From Planctomycetota bacterium (lineage in GTDB: Bacteria; Planctomycetota; UBA1135; UBA2386), in assembly GCA_947501605.1 (NCBI GenBank), contig CANMWZ010000022.1:1-64000 (forward strand): a DNA stretch of 64,000 nt, written 5' to 3'. The stretch's first letter is position 1. Every line of letters begins with the position of its first letter. The position numbers are program-made. Shown here in pieces: positions 51,201-57,200 of the stretch.

Positions 51201-54200
51201 CCTGCAACCACCAGGAGACTAGGGCAGCAGGCCCTGGGGGTTACTCCGACGCTACGGCCGCGAGGCGCGACCGACCTAACCTACGCAGGCCCAGGGTGGA
51301 ATCCAACACGCCGCTCATTCCATTCGTCCGCCGCCGCGATGGTCGCTCGGGCCGACAGTGCCGCCAGCAGCGCCTCGGCCTCGGCTTTGGCCAGGTCCGG
51401 GATCCGGGTCGGTGGTCCACCAGCGACGAAGATTCGCAGTTCGGACAGACCGAGCAGACGTTGCAGCGGTCCGCGCATCAGGGCCACGGCCTGAACTTTG
51501 GCCGTCGGCAGCAGGACCTGATAGCTGCCAAGCACGCCCCAGCGAAGATACACATGGTGCTGCCAGAGGCCGTAGGCCAGCCCCTGCCAGTAGAGCCGAC
51601 CCAGCAACCAAGCGAACGGGACCAGCAGCAGACCGAACCACGCTGCTTCGTGCGCAAACGGCAGCAGGACGGCAATCAGCACGGCAATGTCCATGCAACT
51701 GCGCAGGAACACGCGCCAGACCAGCATGCGCGAGGCGCGCGACACCTGCGTCGATGACTGCTCGAGTCCTGGCAACACTGCGGGCAGCAGGGCTTCGATG
51801 CCGGCAAGCTCCGCAAGCGGAATCACCACATCGAAACCGCCGGGCGCCTCCTCACCGGTGCCACGCCCAGAACCCGCGGAATCGGCGCGCGCGACCGCGA
51901 CCCCGAGCAACCGGCGCAGCCACGTCTGCTCGACCCGGACCCGCTGCACGCGCTGGCGCGGCAGCGTCTTCTGCCGCGTCGTCAGCAGGCCGAATCGGCA
52001 CAGCAACGAATCGGCGCGCAGCGACAGGTGAAAGCCGTGGAAGGCCATCAGATTGCCAACCGCAGCAAACGCGACCGAAAGTGCCAGCACGCCGAAGACC
52101 AGCCCGAGCAACATGCCGGCTGCCAGCATGATCGGAAAGCCGCGAAGCCAGTCGTAGAAGGTGGCCCCGACGCCACGGATCTGCGTGAGCACCCCCAGTC
52201 GGTCGGCGACTTCGTAGGCGCCGAAGGCAGCAACCAGCACGGCCCCGATGCGTAAATCGGTCAGGCCGCGCAGCAGCAACATGCCTGGCGAGGCCCGGTA
52301 GATGGTCCACTCGGGATCGGGCGCTGCGCTCGGCGGCGGCGGGAAGGAACCATCCGCGGGGCTCACACCCGCGTTCTCTACGCCGCGGGCAACCCGCACT
52401 CGAAGCCGCAGCAGCACTTCGCGCAGGTTCTCGGACTCGCCGCGGCCGAGCGAATCCAGCACGGCCTCGACGCCTTGACCCGATGCGGTCTCGACGCGCA
52501 CCACGGTCAAACCGAGGATGCGACGCAAGATCGTCGACTCGAAGCCCAAATCCTGGATGCGATCGATCGGGATGCGACGCTCCTGCCGGTGCAGCACGCC
52601 TTCCCGGGTGCGCAGTTCGTCCTCGGTCAACACGTAATGAAACGTCAGATACCGAACGAGCCCGGTGCCGACCTGGACCAAGAACAGGACGCCACCCAGG
52701 ATCAGGAACATCCGATCGGCGACGAGGCCCAGCAGGCAAGGGAAGGCGGCGCTGCGCAGTCCGCCGATCAGGGACAACAGCAGCACCGCCGGATGCAGGT
52801 GCCCGCGCAGCAGAACAGCGCCCTCGCTGGGCGACGCCGCGGCAACGGCTGGCAGTTCAGACGACATCGCGGCCACGCGCGCGCAGGATGCGGTCACGCA
52901 GCGCTTCCGCGCGCACACGCGACAGGCCCGGCACGCGGAAAGCGGAGCCCTCGTTGCCGGCAGTAAACACGACGAGTGTGGCCAAGCCGAACAAGCGCTC
53001 GATGGGCCCGCGCATCAAGTCCACGTGTTGCATGCGCGGCACCGGCACGTGGCGGTTCTCCAAGAACAGGATGCCAAACCGCAGGGACAGCAGACGGTCA
53101 TCGACCGTGAATCGCCAGTTGGCGAACGCGAACGGCGGCACCACGAGGGCCACGAACACCAGCAGGCCACCCGCGATCCACGCCACCACGGGAGCCCATG
53201 TCGGCCCGTTGCCGCTTTGGCGCCAGAACTCGACGCCGATCACGAGGATGGCGGCAAGGACCAGCGACTTCAGCAGGTCCGTGGCGTACCAGTAGGCGAC
53301 GACGCGGCGCTCGAGACGTTCCTCGCCACCATCGACGAGCGGCGGCGCACCGTGCGGAGGTTGCGAGACGTCGTTCGGGTCCATGGATGCGAGCGTGCCG
53401 GACGATGCCCGCCAGCGCAACGATGCGCGTCCGCCTGTGGTCAGCGGACGCGCGCATCGCCATGGTCGTCGGCGCGCAGAACGCGCACCGAACCAAACCA
53501 CCGAGCTCTGGCTCGAACGAAGACGACCGAACGAAGAAGTGGGGTGACTGACGGGATTTGAACCCGCGACCCTCAGAACCACAATCTGATGCTCTAACCA
53601 ACTGAGCTACAGCCACCGTGCTCGGGTCGGGGCGGGGACTTTGCCGCGCCCTCGCCGCACCGTCAAGTTCGCAGCGGCAAACCGTACCCGAATGCTTGCA
53701 CGCATGTAGGACGGTGGCTATGGTCCCCGCCCCCAACTCGCCTCCATAGCTCAGTTGGTAGAGCAGCGGATTCTTAATCCGCGGGTCCTAGGTTCGATCC
53801 CTAGTGGAGGTACCAACTTCGCGCGCACAGCCCCCGGGTGCGGCCGCCATGGAGTTAGGCCGGTCGAAGTTTGCGTTTTGGGGCGTTCGCGCTCTGGGGC
53901 TGCGGGCACCGACGTTGGGCGCGCATCCGGCCAGAACCGCGCCCGCCGCTCAGAGATCCGCGCGCTCCGCGGTCTCGCTGACGGACGAGTGCTCGGCCAG
54001 GACCGGCTCCTTGGGGATGTGCAGCACGAACTCGGTGCCGGCACCCTCGGTGGATTCGAACGTCACCGAGCCGCCGTGGCCGGCAGTGATCTCCTTGACG
54101 ATGTGCAGTCCAAGGCCGTTGCCGCTGATGCCGCCGGTGTTGCTGCCGCGCTCAAAGCGGCGGAACAGACGGGCGCGATCGCTCTCGGGGATGCCGATGC

Positions 54201-57200
54201 CGTTGTCGCGAACGTGGAGCCCCCAGCTGTCGCCCTCGTCCTCGGCAAACACGCGAATGGTGGGTCGCCGATCCGGGCTCGCGTATTGCAGCGCGTTGCC
54301 GAGCAGATTGGTCAGGGCCTTGGTCAACGCCCACTGGTCGGCGGTGATCGTCGGCATCGGCTCGACCCGCAGCAGCACGTCGCGGTCCTCGATCTCGAAA
54401 CGCATGTGATTCGCGATCTGACCGAGCAGCAGCGTCAGATCCACAGGCTGGAAGTTGAGTTGGACACCGTCGTGGTCGAGCCGCGAACTGTCGAGCAGAT
54501 CGCGGATCAGCAACTCCATCTGATTGACTGCCAAGAGGCCGTTCTGAATCGCCTGCTGCTGCTGGCCCGAGAGTTCCCCGAGATAGCCCTTCTTGAGCGT
54601 CGACAGCATCAAGCGCACAGCGCTCAGCGGTCGGTTGAGGTCGTGCACCGTGTTCTGTGCGACCTCCACCATCTCTCGGACTTTGCGTTCGAGCAGGTTC
54701 TTGTGCTGGTCGAGATCGCCGAAGCGGCGCGCAAGTTCGAGCGAGGAGCGGACGCTGCTGGCGAGGAGAGCACCGTTCTCGCCGTCCGTGTCGTCGGACG
54801 CCATCGACGGCGCTTCGGGAGCCGGAGCGAGCTCGGCGTCAAGTTCGGCATCGGACAGCCGCTCATCGCCGCGCACCGGGCCCTCGACCTCACCGCTGCC
54901 GTCGGACTCGTCGACGCGAAAGCTCGTCTGCGGCAACTCTTCGATTGCCACCTCAGCACGCTCGCGACGCACCTCGTCACAGATCTCCCACAACTTCGTT
55001 CGCGCGCCTTCGGCAACGTCCTCGGCCGAGGCGCTGCCGCGGCCAAGCCCGTACTGCCGGACCTTCGACTCGATGAGGAGCCCCGCCGCATGCACAAAGG
55101 TCTCGAACACCCCATAGCCCTCGGTCGCGACCGACGGGAACGCATCGATGTCGGGCCGAAACCGAAAGTGCCGATCCAGCTCGGGCTCGCTCAGGATGTC
55201 CGGCAAGTCGCGTTTGTTGTATTGGATGATGATCGGGATGTCGGTGGCCGAGGCCGCGCGCAAGTTCTCGATCATGCTCTGCATGGACTCGAGGTTCTCC
55301 TGCAGTCGGCTGCGCTGACTGTCCACAACGAACACCACCGCATCGGCGCCGTTCAACACGTACTTGCGCATCTGCCGGTACTTGGGTTGCCCAGGCACGG
55401 TGAAGCCTTGGATCCGGATCTTGAACCCACCGACGCTGCCGAGGTTGATCGGCAGGAAGTCGAACAACAGGGTGCTGTCTTCCTCGGTGTTGATCGAGAC
55501 GAGCTGCACCTCGTTGCGCGGGCAGAGAATCCCGTGCACGCGCTGCAGGCTCGTGGTCTTGCCGCCGACGCCTACCCCGTAGTAGACGAGCTTGGCGTTG
55601 ATTGTTCGTTCGGCGACGTTGATGAAGCCCATGTGCGACGGCGTCGGGATTTCCGCACCGACATCGGCATCGAGGGCACTCCTTCTTCAGCCGCCGAGCG
55701 GAGGCTTCGTGTTCGGGATCAACCCGCCAAGCCACACCCCGGCGTCCAACAGGCTGAGCAGTGCCGCTGTCAGGCCCTTCCCATCGACCTCTGCGAGCGC
55801 GTGCACAGCAGCGTCGGCGATCCCGAAGTGGCCCAACAGACAAGCGGCCCGAGCGCGCGGTAGCAGACTCGCGGGCACCCGCGAAAGGGCTTGGCTCAGG
55901 GTGGTTGCGAACGGCGGCACTGCCAGCTCGGCGCGAACGACCGCAAGCGCGGCCGCGATCTCGCCAGCGGTTGGCGGCGTCGTCTCGTACGAGGCCAACA
56001 GGCTTTCGAGCTCGCGGCGTGGCACCTCTGGACCGCCCTCGGCAGGCGCGCGGCGGAACAACATCACCAGCGGGTCGCCCAGCAGAAAGTCTGCTTGCAC
56101 GAACGGGGCTCGCGCGAGCGACTCATTGCCGCGCCACGACTGGAACCGCGTCCGCGCCCGCAGTCGCAGGAGTTCGATCGCTGCAGCGGCAGACAGCGAA
56201 TCGTCGCTGGGCACGGGGAGCCGTAGCGCCGCAGCCACATAGGCAGCATCGATGCGGGGGTGCGGTTCCAGCGCGATCGGCAACGTGCCGTCGTGCCGCC
56301 AGTTCGCCGCTTCGATCGTTGCCGGTGTCGGACCAGCGGCAACGTTGGCAAGCACGAGCCAGAGGCGCGCCCCAACACTAGCCTCGCCGACCGTACAAAC
56401 GCGCAAGGGTGCCGAGAGCGGCAGCGCCGACGCCGTCACGAACGCGGCGGTTCCGCAGCGCTGAAGTGACGACGCATCGCCAAGGACGCCCGTCGCACGC
56501 GAGGTCGCGGCGAACACCGCACGACGAGCGAGCCCGTGCAGCACTTCACCAGGGTAGAGCCAGTCCGCGTCGTCGGCCGCGAGCGCCGCCAGCGCCAAGG
56601 TGCGGGCCAAGGTGTCGGTCGAGCAGTCGCCGAACGGCCGCAACAGCGCCTCGAGCCAGCTCGCGGCGGTCGTCGGCGAGGCGGACCTCAGCACCACTGA
56701 GAAGACCGTGAAGCCATCGCCGAGTTCGCGCTGCGTCGTCGCACCCGCTGGCAGCACGGCGTCGGCATTCACCGCACGCTGCATGGCGAGCGCATGCTCG
56801 AGCGCCCGCTGCGCGCCACCGTCCACGAGCGGACGCCATGGCCATACGACCGCAATGGCAACCGCATCCGTCTGCGGAACTTCAATCGCCCTGAGAGCAT
56901 GGCCGTTCGGCGTGCGTTGCCACGCTCCCGCAGTCGTCACCGCGGGTTCCTGGGCCGAGAGTGCGGCCCCGAGCAGGAAGCTCATCTGCAGACTCGACCA
57001 CATCGGCTTCGTCACTCTTGCCATAGCTGTCCTCTCGACAAATGCAACACGCGATGACTGCTCGCCGCGGCTAGCTCGGTGTCGTGCGTGACCAGAAGGA
57101 TGGAGGTCCCGGCACGCTCGCGCAACGCCGACAGCAGGTGGAGGAGCGCACGGCCAGCCGTGCGATCGAGCGACGCGGTAGGCTCGTCCAGAATCAACAC

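Follow-up and report, generated by a model that had tools for sequence, protein, structure and literature searches.

An MglA-type GTPase without an arginine finger fused to an orphan histidine kinase in one family of uncultured Planctomycetota

Can a Ras-like GTPase of the MglA type serve as the input domain of a histidine kinase to which it is covalently joined? This question is raised by an ORF of a Planctomycetota bacterium, located at 53950-55632 on the minus strand of the window, that is, the whole stretch of 64,000 nucleotides analysed here. The ORF starts with ATG and encodes 560 amino acids. From the N terminus, these form a G domain of the MglA type, a pair of helices, an acidic linker of 49 residues, and a core with HisKA and HATPase_c (Table 1). 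The Pfam models Arf, HisKA, and HATPase_c score above their cut-offs, and no further Pfam domain does so. Residues 1-188 match the MglA structures of Myxococcus xanthus (5ymx, E 2.6e-45) and Thermus thermophilus (3t12, E 1.8e-44), and residues 314-543 match HK853 (E about 2.6e-27 to 5.8e-28). Since neither another Pfam domain nor a hydrophobic segment was found in the protein, the kinase is predicted to be soluble and to have no second sensor domain. Thus, Pfam and structure matches agree with the initial annotation, which described, without stating the strand, a single polypeptide made of an MglA-like G domain, an acidic linker, and a complete soluble kinase core. Its figure of 44% identity to Myxococcus MglA was reproduced (about 84 of 188 residues, counted in the alignment to the solved structures), and the JGI automatic annotation does already name both halves, as it had stated. 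Literature searches found no paper on a fusion of an MglA-type GTPase and a histidine kinase.

Is this a real gene? Such an ORF might arise by mis-assembly, by read-through across two genes, or from a pseudogene in decay, and all genomes in this analysis are metagenome bins. However, the fusion is a single open frame in 82 of 91 genomes of the same family (31/31 of the high-quality ones), closed or near-closed assemblies among them. It recurs in 108 species representatives, and 120/120 homologues among the matches listed (505-665 aa) carry PF00025, PF00512, and PF02518. Both halves are under purifying selection, and RNA-library contigs of two studies contain near-identical sequences. These results refute the artefact, which is left with a vanishingly small probability; the fusion is a real gene. 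The fusion was absent from all 18 genomes of sister families examined. Its conservation in many Planctomycetota bins, noted before, thus takes the form of a core gene of one uncultured planctomycete family.

Is the G domain intact? The protein has G1 (GVGVGGKTT), G2 (EEDSTLLFDF, with Thr54 as the G2 threonine), G3 (TVPGQ, with the catalytic Gln82), and G4 (NKRD), and G1, the G2 threonine, G3 with Gln82, and G4 are intact in 79 of 79 parsed loci. Ser53 lies at the position of Arg53, the intrinsic arginine finger of MglA. The initial annotation took this serine to be nearly invariant, which does not hold: the position is Ser in 55, Ala in 21, and Gln in 3 of the 79 loci. Arginine is invariably absent, so the reported loss of the finger stands. 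The MglA that stands alone in this genome reads GDRTLFFDF and keeps the arginine. In other families, the arginine is likewise kept by five fused relatives as well as by two short stand-alone forms. In the G-domain tree, the Arg-less clade is monophyletic with a support of 100/100. Together, the 79 loci, the Arg-keeping relatives, and the monophyly indicate that the arginine finger was lost once.

MglA is described as needing this arginine for its GTPase activity (PMC4316618). Without it, the G domain should hydrolyse GTP very slowly alone, or only with an arginine supplied in trans, and should therefore dwell in the GTP form. A substitute conserved arginine was sought in the post-G, linker, and pre-DHp regions, and none was found; R222 and R303 are invariant in 30 close homologues but less than 90% conserved in 75 sequences. 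Judging from its motifs, the G domain looks functional. No other part of the fusion is as conserved: mean pairwise identity in 30 homologues is 86%, versus 66% for the ATPase domain.

Relatives of the fusion were found in other Planctomycetota families as G-GAF-HisKA-HATPase_c proteins (L085-L087, P0138, P0141, P0148, and P0150). Their G domains fall in the same clade as that of the Arg-less fusion (support 100/99), and both share an N-terminal cassette of the G domain, the post-G helices, the linker, and the following helix (residues 1-339, 41% identity). In these relatives the helix precedes a GAF domain, which lies between the cassette and the kinase. In contrast to the Arg-less fusion, which has no GAF domain, they keep the arginine finger. 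The kinase cores of the two types are only 25-29% identical. Since the cassette aligns while the kinase cores diverge, the N-terminal cassette behaves as a portable module. The post-G extension aligns to the same region of these relatives, is absent from the solved MglA chains of about 195 aa, and is 60% conserved in the 30 homologues.

The kinase core resembles HisKA kinases of the HK853/EnvZ type in having DHp and CA domains with all the catalytic boxes. The phospho-accepting His330 of the H-box (TVHDLNRP) is present in 75 of 75 sequences, with Asp at His+1. The N, G1 (DNGIGI), F (FRRFERG), and G2 (GxGLGL) boxes are present in HATPase_c, and the boxes of the ATP lid are invariant in 30 homologues. 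Unlike the HK853/EnvZ type, the protein has no membrane or periplasmic sensor and is an orphan, and residue 334 (His+4), which is Thr in HK853, is Arg in 63 and Lys in 10 of 75 sequences (73/75 in all). For CrdS and HK853, an acidic residue at His+1 is reported to be required for kinase activity, and Thr/Asn at the His+4 place for phosphatase but not kinase activity (PMC3510030). Thus, the core looks active, and replacement of the phosphatase residue would bias the output toward kinase only; this predicted bias rests on one residue and two papers on other kinases. Orphan status is evident from the distribution of receiver domains, as none of the 43 receiver-domain matches of the genome lies on the contig of the fusion, and only 3 of 80 related loci have one in their flanks. 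Neither a response regulator nor an MglB/roadblock gene was found near the fusion, in agreement with what had been noted, nor was a GAP or GEF gene.

Between the two halves lies the linker, in which 16 of the 49 residues are acidic and 3 basic. Its mean pairwise identity is 30% in 30 homologues, and its length varies through insertions in relatives, although it contains a short conserved helix motif, SDAELDAEL (261-268). In contrast, the pre-DHp helix is 72% and the DHp 78% conserved. The AF2 model of the monomer (mean pLDDT 65.9, pTM 0.40) shows no confident packing between domains, and the P-loop and switch I (residues 23-58) are also poorly modelled. A disordered span of residues 225-307 had been reported. 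The linker is indeed of low confidence, while the stretch covers only about 224-287, with a helix beginning at 286 rather than 307. Such a flexible linker favours docking or recruitment over transmission through a helix.

Does the fusion belong to a known system? The G domain matches Group 1 MglA of M. xanthus and T. thermophilus in fold and sequence (E about 1e-45) and keeps its G3, Gln82, Thr54, and G4. It differs in having Ser, Ala, or Gln for the arginine finger, 373 further residues including the kinase, and no adjacent mglB. The conservons of Actinobacteria (CvnA-D) likewise pair a histidine kinase with an MglA-family GTPase that has no arginine finger, and no response regulator is dedicated to them, as described in PMC4316618. 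The initial annotation went further and read the fusion as a single-chain conservon, a reading that I reject. Conservons are four separate genes including a roadblock protein and CvnC, neither of which lies beside the fusion. Their GTPase belongs to Group 2: Thr stands in place of the Arg, and G3 is GTPGQ, the sequence of Groups 2-5, whereas the TVPGQ of the fusion is the Group 1 type (PMC4316618). Their kinase sits in the membrane and carries HAMP as well as LPxR at its C terminus; the fusion has none of these features. The likeness is thus an analogy only, not membership. The Pfam Roc model scores 22.0 bits on the fusion, below the 27-bit cut-off. ROCO proteins such as LRRK2, in which a Roc GTPase-COR unit is fused to a protein kinase and intramolecular control is debated, also join a kinase to a Ras-like G domain within a single chain. 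However, the fusion has no COR and a histidine rather than Ser/Thr kinase, and the two architectures are not homologous.

How may the two halves work together? I favour the view, to which I would give about an even chance as a whole, that the protein is a cytoplasmic orphan HisKA-type kinase whose sole input is the MglA-derived G domain on a flexible acidic tether. The G domain would still bind guanine nucleotide and stay mostly in the GTP form, with hydrolysis very slow unaided or dependent on a partner's arginine. The kinase core would keep autophosphorylation and phosphotransfer with the predicted kinase-only bias. The time or place at which the kinase dimer is active would be set by the G domain, according to its nucleotide or its partner. 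Most probably, the G domain would dock on the kinase core depending on its nucleotide, or the protein would be recruited to a partner or to a site in the cell, much as free MglA-GTP recruits its effectors; it is unlikely that the signal travels along an uninterrupted helix. A response regulator encoded elsewhere would receive the phosphoryl group. The fusion may thus wire G-protein signalling straight into a phosphorelay. The catalytic Gln82, kept in all 79 loci, counts against this explanation since it would be unexpected were GTP never hydrolysed.

Alternatively, the G domain might be permanently GTP-bound or nucleotide-independent and act purely as a scaffold for localisation or oligomerisation, while regulation of the kinase would come from something else, for instance from other proteins, the conserved motif in the linker, or the tail at the C terminus. 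The clade-wide loss of the arginine finger, the lack of a nearby GAP or GEF gene, and the short conserved motifs elsewhere in the protein (SDAELD; FDxxYELRE, shared by most relatives; and HSxxSETAxRADL in the tail, which has 57% mean pairwise identity in 30 homologues) agree with this. I nevertheless consider it unlikely, as a pure scaffold would need neither Gln82 nor invariant switch regions, and constraint is stronger on the G domain than on the catalytic kinase domain. The initial annotation proposed that a GTP/GDP cycle directly gates autophosphorylation in cis. The G domain would contact DHp/CA in one nucleotide state, an MglB-type GAP and a GEF would drive the cycle, and the polarity module would be linked to a phosphorelay. 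The retained nucleotide-binding motifs and Gln82 and the conserved pre-DHp helix and DHp fit this model. On contig C7, the genome also carries two roadblock (MglB-like) genes flanking a stand-alone MglA, and stand-alone MglA is matched in at least 10 further family genomes. However, MglB is described as acting on the Arg and Gln of MglA itself, which it brings into position (PMC4316618). MglB-type stimulation should therefore fail in a clade with no Arg, and no roadblock gene is near. With the variable, flexible linker and no confident packing in AF2, strict gating in cis loses its footing and is quite improbable. Signals might also flow in reverse, with ATP binding or autophosphorylation of the kinase core controlling the G domain as an effector-binding output without any response regulator. 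Wuichet and Sogaard-Andersen argue for a GTPase output in conservons (PMC4316618), and the orphan status and the conservation of the G domain, higher than in any other part, are consistent with it. Yet the conserved phospho-accepting His and DHp surface point to real phosphotransfer to a receiver, the 43 receiver-domain matches offer orphan partners, and orphan kinases are common; reverse flow is thus very doubtful.

Table 1. Features of the fusion locus, in positions of the window
Feature	Position	Strand	Evidence
ABC ATPase, first gene of the unit	57012..58493	-	Pfam ABC_tran matches twice, E 9.8e-49
Secreted M16B-peptidase-like protein, 445 aa, directly upstream of the fusion	55687..57024	-	AF2, Foldseek
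MglA-type G domain, residues 1-187	55072..55632	-	MglA structures E 2.6e-45; Pfam Arf 41.7 bits (residues 66-156)
Ser53 codon (MglA Arg53 position)	55474..55476	-	Codon check; MglA alignment
Post-G extension, residues 188-236	54925..55071	-	AF2 helices 175-194 and 203-224, then LPQT
Acidic flexible linker, residues 237-285	54778..54924	-	Composition; pLDDT <50; variable-length insertions in relatives
Pre-DHp helix and DHp (HisKA), residues 286-390	54463..54777	-	Pfam HisKA 45.5 bits (residues 323-387); AF2 helices 286-348 and 356-386
His330 codon, H-box HDLNRP	54643-54645	-	Motif reading
HATPase_c ATP-binding domain, residues 391-545	53998..54462	-	Pfam 95.1 bits (residues 432-542); invariant alignment columns
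Conserved C-terminal tail, residues 546-560, and stop codon	53950..53997	-	HSxxSETAxRADL in alignment
tRNA-Lys (CTT)	53740..53815	+	ARAGORN; 134 nt downstream of the fusion stop codon
tRNA-His (GTG)	53540..53616	-	ARAGORN; between the fusion gene and bPH_2 genes

The fusion gene is the last of a conserved three-gene unit. The first gene encodes a double ABC ATPase, whose likely true start is Met47 (near 58355). It has two nucleotide-binding domains, and no membrane domain or hydrophobic segment was found in it; its best NCBIfam models are NikE/NikD-like and below their cut-offs. Of the 61 loci with at least 2.8 kb of upstream sequence, 58 carry this gene there on the same strand. The middle gene encodes a protein with a signal-peptide-like N terminus and no Pfam or NCBIfam match, assigned from its AF2 model (pLDDT 89.2, pTM 0.87) and best Foldseek match (3ami_A, E 9.4e-17). 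In related loci it lies 28-143 nt before the fusion gene on the same strand. Neither neighbour is evidently linked to a GTPase-kinase of the cytoplasm, and the conserved gene order may simply have been inherited within one family. The tRNA-Lys gene marks the end of the transcription unit. The tRNA-His gene overlaps the 5′ part of a mechanically called ORF (52857-53582).

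It was found that an MglA-type G domain and a HisKA/HATPase_c histidine kinase share a single ORF, as the initial annotation had observed without giving the strand, which is minus; the ORF itself, the Pfam matches (see the table), the matches to solved structures, and the motifs all agree on this. Among solved structures, residues 1-188 match the MglA proteins of M. xanthus (E 2.6e-45) and T. thermophilus (E 1.8e-44), and HK853, a kinase from Thermotoga, is the match for residues 314-543 (E 2.6e-27). The previously reported 44% identity to MglA corresponds to about 84 identities counted over 188 aligned positions, and every motif listed with it (GVGVGGKTT, EEDSTLLFDF, TVPGQ, NKRD, and TVHDLNRP) is present. 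Since nearly all of 30 aligned homologues open with MGFINV, as MglA opens with MSFINY, the start of the fusion is well defined. A hydropathy scan found no membrane segment in it.

Positions of the fusion, its parts, and other features discussed in the text (window coordinates or residues of the fusion unless a contig or locus is named; identity is the mean pairwise value across 30 homologues)
Feature	Position	Strand	Remarks
Fusion ORF	53950-55632	-	ATG start, 560 codons
Arf	residues 66-156		41.7 bits, above curated Pfam cut-off
HisKA	residues 323-387		45.5 bits, above curated Pfam cut-off
HATPase_c	residues 432-542		95.1 bits, above curated Pfam cut-off
G domain	residues 1-187		86% identity
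Post-G extension	residues 188-236		60% identity
Linker	residues 237-288		30% identity
Pre-DHp helix	residues 289-321		72% identity
DHp	residues 322-390		78% identity
ATPase domain	residues 391-545		66% identity
C-terminal tail	residues 546-560		57% identity
Spacer upstream of the fusion start	55633-55686	-	54 nt
M16-like ORF	55687-57024	-	445 codons
tRNA-Lys(CTT)	53740-53815	+
tRNA-His(GTG)	53540-53616	-
Pile-up of RNA-library contigs	53540-53815
Mechanical ORF overlapping tRNA-His	52857-53582
Row of bPH_2, FHA/YscD-like, and PilM/FtsA-like genes	44032-53582	-
Region scanned for promoters and terminators	53500-58700
ORF with cytidylyltransferase-like domain	61294-62823	-	509 aa
ComEC-type gene	61849-63999	+	runs past the window end
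Stand-alone MglA of the same genome	C7:32776-33813 (L002:1492-2529)	+	345 aa
Context of a related fusion, with MreB-like and ParA/MinD-like ATPases	L078:1833-9930
Context of another related fusion, with MreB-like ATPase	L075:1387-3423

The AF2 model built with the 30-homologue alignment (mean pLDDT 65.9, pTM 0.40) folds the G core, helices 175-194 and 203-224, DHp helix 2, and the CA domain, and a long helix (286-348) leads into His330. Residues 224-260 and 268-287 are poorly modelled, as are the P-loop and switch I (23-58). Of the 49 residues of the acidic linker, 16 are acidic and 3 basic, and SDAELDAEL (261-268) forms a short helix that is conserved. In most relatives there are linker insertions of differing length and a motif FDxxYELRE, which is absent from the subclade of the window protein. 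The C-terminal tail, HSxxSETAxRADL, is conserved among homologues. A predicted complex of the G domain (1-236) with two copies of the kinase part (250-560) and GTP/Mg scored 0.29 and 0.26 against a mark of 0.32.

Is the fusion confined to one lineage? All of the best 120 matches in a collection of 5.8 billion proteins (505-665 aa, 59-100% identity) carry its three Pfam domains, and the named sources among them are Planctomycetota; in all, the family counts more than 1,000 sequences. JGI auto-annotation does name both halves of such proteins ('signal transduction histidine kinase/signal recognition particle receptor subunit beta' or 'MglA'), as had been pointed out. In a set of species-representative genomes, 139 stretches were matched and 108 encode a relative; 80 loci, all from metagenome bins, were kept. 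Of 401 genomes sampled from the phylum, those with both halves in one frame all belong to the window's own family (5 of 5 genomes beside its own); the 18 genomes from the other three families in the order have none. A match to the fusion at E <= 1e-96, far beyond the value of about 1e-48 at which a stand-alone MglA would match, was obtained in 82 of the family's 91 genomes; all 31 high-quality genomes are included, and the nine without a match are 58-85% complete. Thus, the fusion is a core gene of one family-level lineage, and as a lineage-defining gene it probably serves a central function in this uncultured family of planctomycetes.

As defined in the account of MglA groups by Wuichet and Sogaard-Andersen (2014, PMC4316618), Group 1 MglA proteins have the G3 motif TVPGQ and, in all members, an arginine finger beside the G2 Thr; in the same account, MglB works by positioning this arginine and the Gln. 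The G2 motif could be parsed in 79 of the 80 loci, the remaining locus being truncated. All 79 have the G1-G4 motifs, with NK(R/L)D and with TVPGQ including the catalytic Gln. In contrast, the position of MglA Arg53, the intrinsic arginine finger, is Ser in 55, Ala in 21, Gln in 3, and Arg in none. The Ser had been described as nearly invariant, which proved too strong; the constant is the absence of Arg. A Group 1 MglA is a single-domain, MglB-coupled protein, whereas the fusion is a multidomain protein of 560 aa and the roadblock genes lie elsewhere. By its G3 motif, the G domain is classed as Group 1 MglA-like, with two defining features of that group missing.

Could another arginine replace the finger? 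R222 and R303, both outside the G domain, never vary among 30 close homologues, yet each is conserved at less than 90% across 75 sequences. R39 of CPRNEV is Arg in 71 of 75, with another residue in five loci. No conserved arginine able to replace the lost finger was found within the fusion in the alignments of 30 and 75 sequences. In the Ras-RasGAP pair, the arginine is provided in trans, and by analogy the Gln retained without Arg suggests that the fusion may likewise receive an arginine in trans.

In the kinase half, as in HisKA sensor kinases, the phospho-accepting His330 is found in all 75 full-length sequences, the acidic His+1 residue, Asp331, is invariant in 30 homologues, and the N, G1, F, and G2 boxes of HATPase_c are present, with invariant columns including N442, N446, D476-I481, F490-G496, and G504-L509. 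At His+4, bifunctional HisKA kinases have Thr or Asn, whereas 63 of the 75 sequences have Arg and 10 have Lys at position 334 of the fusion, the counterpart of the Thr in HELRTPL, the H-box of HK853. In the results of Willett and Kirby (PMC3510030) on these two positions, the Thr/Asn is needed for phosphatase but not kinase activity in CrdS, two homologues, and HK853, and the acidic His+1 is needed for kinase activity. Read from these residues, the kinase half is a HisKA kinase without the phosphatase residue. The fusion family seems to have lost one residue for GTP hydrolysis and one for response-regulator dephosphorylation while keeping all else, a putative double bias to the 'on' state.

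Proteins from other families of Planctomycetota share 42-55% identity with the fusion over their N-terminal 200-330 residues, and eight of them were retrieved. They include three G-GAF-HisKA-HATPase_c proteins (707-772 aa), one with G plus GAF, and one with G plus an unassigned region; two short stand-alone forms (224-253 aa) were also translated. The arginine finger (DRT or ERT) is present in all seven examined (five long, two short). In BLASTP alignments with two of the G-GAF-kinases, residues 1-339 or 1-329 of the fusion align at 41% identity, whereas the kinase cores share 25-29%. The aligned stretch spans the post-G helices, the linker, and then a helix, which runs into the DHp in the fusion and precedes the GAF domain in the G-GAF-kinases. 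Thus, as judged from these alignments, the unit common to both is an N-terminal cassette and not the whole protein.

A search with residues 1-236 against 1.84 billion cluster representatives gave 5,709 matches at E <= 0.001. Among the best 150, an HMM built from the fusion family detected a kinase core in 15; four of these are Arg-less members of the family of the fusion (604-619 aa), and six others were confirmed by Pfam as G-GAF-HisKA-HATPase_c proteins. Among the matches examined from the best 150, Pfam also recognized one more G-kinase that lacks GAF and has Thr in place of the Arg. Most of these 150 MglA-like representatives are 300-620 aa long with an N-terminal G domain. In a maximum-likelihood tree of 38 G domains, hand-picked from three sets of sequences and rooted at the midpoint only, the Arg-less G-kinases form a single clade (support 100/100), which is nested in a 100/99 clade with Arg-bearing G-GAF-kinases and the short stand-alone forms. 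A second group of G-GAF-kinases falls with canonical MglA-like proteins, including the MglA of the window's own genome. Apparently, a single loss of the arginine took place, in a lineage in which the cassette was already fused.

On the minus strand, the fusion comes after a 445-codon ORF, which in turn comes after an ORF of 493 codons that encodes two ABC ATPase domains but no membrane domain. Sequence searches gave no family match for the 445-codon ORF. Its product, presumably secreted, and the orthologues have a signal-peptide-like N terminus. Foldseek assigned the AF2 model made with 24 orthologues (pLDDT 89.2, pTM 0.87) to the M16B peptidases (3ami_A, E 9.4e-17), with 299 matches at E <= 0.001 in all, and the predicted structure has the two-lobed fold of M16. 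HxxEH, the zinc-binding motif of M16, occurs nowhere in the 445-aa sequence. Across the 24 orthologues, neither His nor Glu is conserved in the N-terminal lobe, where the consensus reads GLAxVLAxxRL, probably at the position of HxxEH.

Where the sequence before the fusion extends for 2.8 kb or more (61 of the 80 loci), the ABC gene lies upstream on the same strand in 58 loci; the M16-like gene was detected in 54 of the 80. A same-strand ORF ends 28-143 nt before the fusion in the 53 loci examined; it encodes a different protein in L078 and L084, two of the related loci. Since a divergent thioredoxin-like gene (50 loci) and a gene for a polytopic membrane protein (36 loci) are syntenic too, part of this conservation may reflect inherited gene order and not functional coupling. 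In a distant subclade (L074, L075, and L078; about 50% identity), the gene directly before the fusion encodes an MreB-like ATPase of actin fold. L078 has a ParA/MinD-like ATPase and, likewise further upstream, a Ser/Thr protein kinase of 1,089 aa, and trkA/trkH are convergent downstream in L078 and L075. The context of L075 and L078 resembles that of cytoskeleton or positioning genes and differs from that of the window, with its ABC and M16-like genes.

Because the tRNA-Lys and tRNA-His genes come after its stop codon, before the bPH_2 genes, the fusion is the last gene of its unit. A promoter and terminator scan around the fusion gave no promoter-like site and one terminator-like site inside the gene, fewer than in shuffled sequences. 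Metatranscriptomic contigs from two studies cover parts of the fusion gene at >=99% identity, where DNA carry-over is possible, and the neighbours on both strands are covered to a like extent. None of these contigs spans the junction of the M16-like gene and the fusion; one spans the ABC/M16-like junction, which is no proof of a single transcript. The RNA-library contigs pile up and break at the two tRNA genes. In the spacer before the fusion, GAAGGAG was seen by eye 8 nt before an out-of-frame ATG, and the short frame that begins at this ATG extends over the first codons of the fusion.

The row beyond the tRNA genes encodes two bPH_2 membrane proteins, an FHA/YscD-like protein, a PilM/FtsA-like actin-fold protein with hydrophobic segments, a 277-aa protein with a weak VWA match, and an 897-aa TPR protein. 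As parts of the same system, these were rejected: the bPH_2 genes are conserved in 15-16 of the 80 loci and the other four in just 3, and the two tRNA genes lie between. Since one mechanical ORF overlaps tRNA-His, its true start is further in.

The search for partners bore out two cautions of the initial annotation. It had stated that no response regulator is adjacent; none of the 43 receiver matches in the genome is on the 70-kb contig of the fusion, a receiver domain occurs in the flanks of 3 of the 80 loci at unrelated positions, and none was found in the short flanks of eight relatives from other families. It had also stated that no MglB-like gene is nearby, and both roadblock genes of the genome indeed flank a stand-alone, Arg-bearing MglA on another contig, C7. 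This MglA keeps its arginine finger and consists of a G domain, an Ala/Pro-rich stretch, and a C-terminal hydrophobic helix, by which it looks membrane-tethered.

How does the fusion compare with known systems that join a GTPase to a kinase? In a conservon (CvnABCD), a roadblock protein, CvnB, and CvnC accompany the kinase and the GTPase, whereas the neighbours of the fusion are the ABC ATPase, the M16-like protein, tRNAs, and bPH_2 proteins. The conservon GTPase belongs to Group 2, with Thr at the Arg position and GTPGQ, in contrast to the Ser/Ala/Gln and TVPGQ of the fusion. The conservon kinase is a membrane protein with HAMP and a C-terminal LPxR; the fusion has no hydrophobic segment and ends in its own conserved tail. 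ROCO proteins have Roc followed by COR, whereas the fusion has no COR match and a Roc score of 22.0 bits, below the cut-off of 27. The conservon and ROCO are functional analogies and not families that contain the fusion. The earlier interpretation is thus supported in part; its reading as a 'single-chain conservon' holds as an analogy, since membership in the conservons fails for want of roadblock/CvnC partners and of a membrane kinase.

There is an even chance, in my estimate, that the fusion works as a soluble HisKA kinase biased to kinase activity, an orphan that receives its input from the MglA-derived G domain and from nothing else. The G domain would bind GTP and dwell in that state, since the arginine for hydrolysis is missing, and its nucleotide or partner state would control the kinase by docking or recruitment. 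Transmission along a helix is argued against by the linker, which is flexible, poorly conserved, and variable in length, and by the same cassette preceding a GAF domain in the relatives. The original proposal, in which the G domain gates the kinase directly in cis and is driven by the MglB/GEF set of the cell, is rather improbable. That the G domain is a permanently GTP-bound scaffold is unlikely, if somewhat easier to accept: the missing arginine is compatible with it, but Gln82, Thr54, and the switch regions are invariant and the G domain is exceptionally conserved, which argues for a working nucleotide switch.

A reverse flow as in conservons, with the G domain as the output, is an improbable reading. 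An artefact is scarcely credible for a gene found in this many genomes. Beyond docking or recruitment control, a bolder and improbable reading takes the cassette (G domain, post-G helices, acidic tether, and following helix) as a portable 'G-protein input module' and the Arg-less clade as a reciprocal switch between cassette and kinase. The kinase dimer or another partner would give the missing arginine in trans, and GTP hydrolysis would then time the kinase-on state; alternatively, the G domain might simply read the cellular GTP pool. In both cases, a phosphorelay would take its signal straight from guanine nucleotides or from polarity signalling. Such a protein would act as a kinase only and stay 'on' for long, since the Arg finger and the phosphatase residue, its two off-switches, are both gone.

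Signalling in cells relies mainly on two kinds of switch, small Ras-like GTPases and two-component kinases. In bacteria, only indirect meetings of the two are known, by Frz/RomR acting on MglA or in the multi-protein conservon. No paper on a fusion of MglA or another GTPase with a histidine kinase was found in the full-text literature searched, which covered journals readable without subscription, nor by terms in two kinase surveys; the 2014 MglA census, by the scope it describes, is confined to small GTPases (PMC4316618). A natural single-chain GTPase-kinase that is soluble, 560 residues long, and free of other sensor domains offers an uncomplicated way to study how a histidine kinase can be controlled by a G-domain switch, and a compact natural model of putative coupling between G protein and phosphorelay. 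It also brings a built-in comparison between the Arg-less clade, without the GTPase finger and the phosphatase residue, and the G-GAF-kinase relatives that keep the arginine.

At the far end of the window, a ComEC-type gene with Competence and metallo-beta-lactamase domains was found, whose mechanical ORF overlaps the opposite-strand ORF of the protein with a cytidylyltransferase-like domain.
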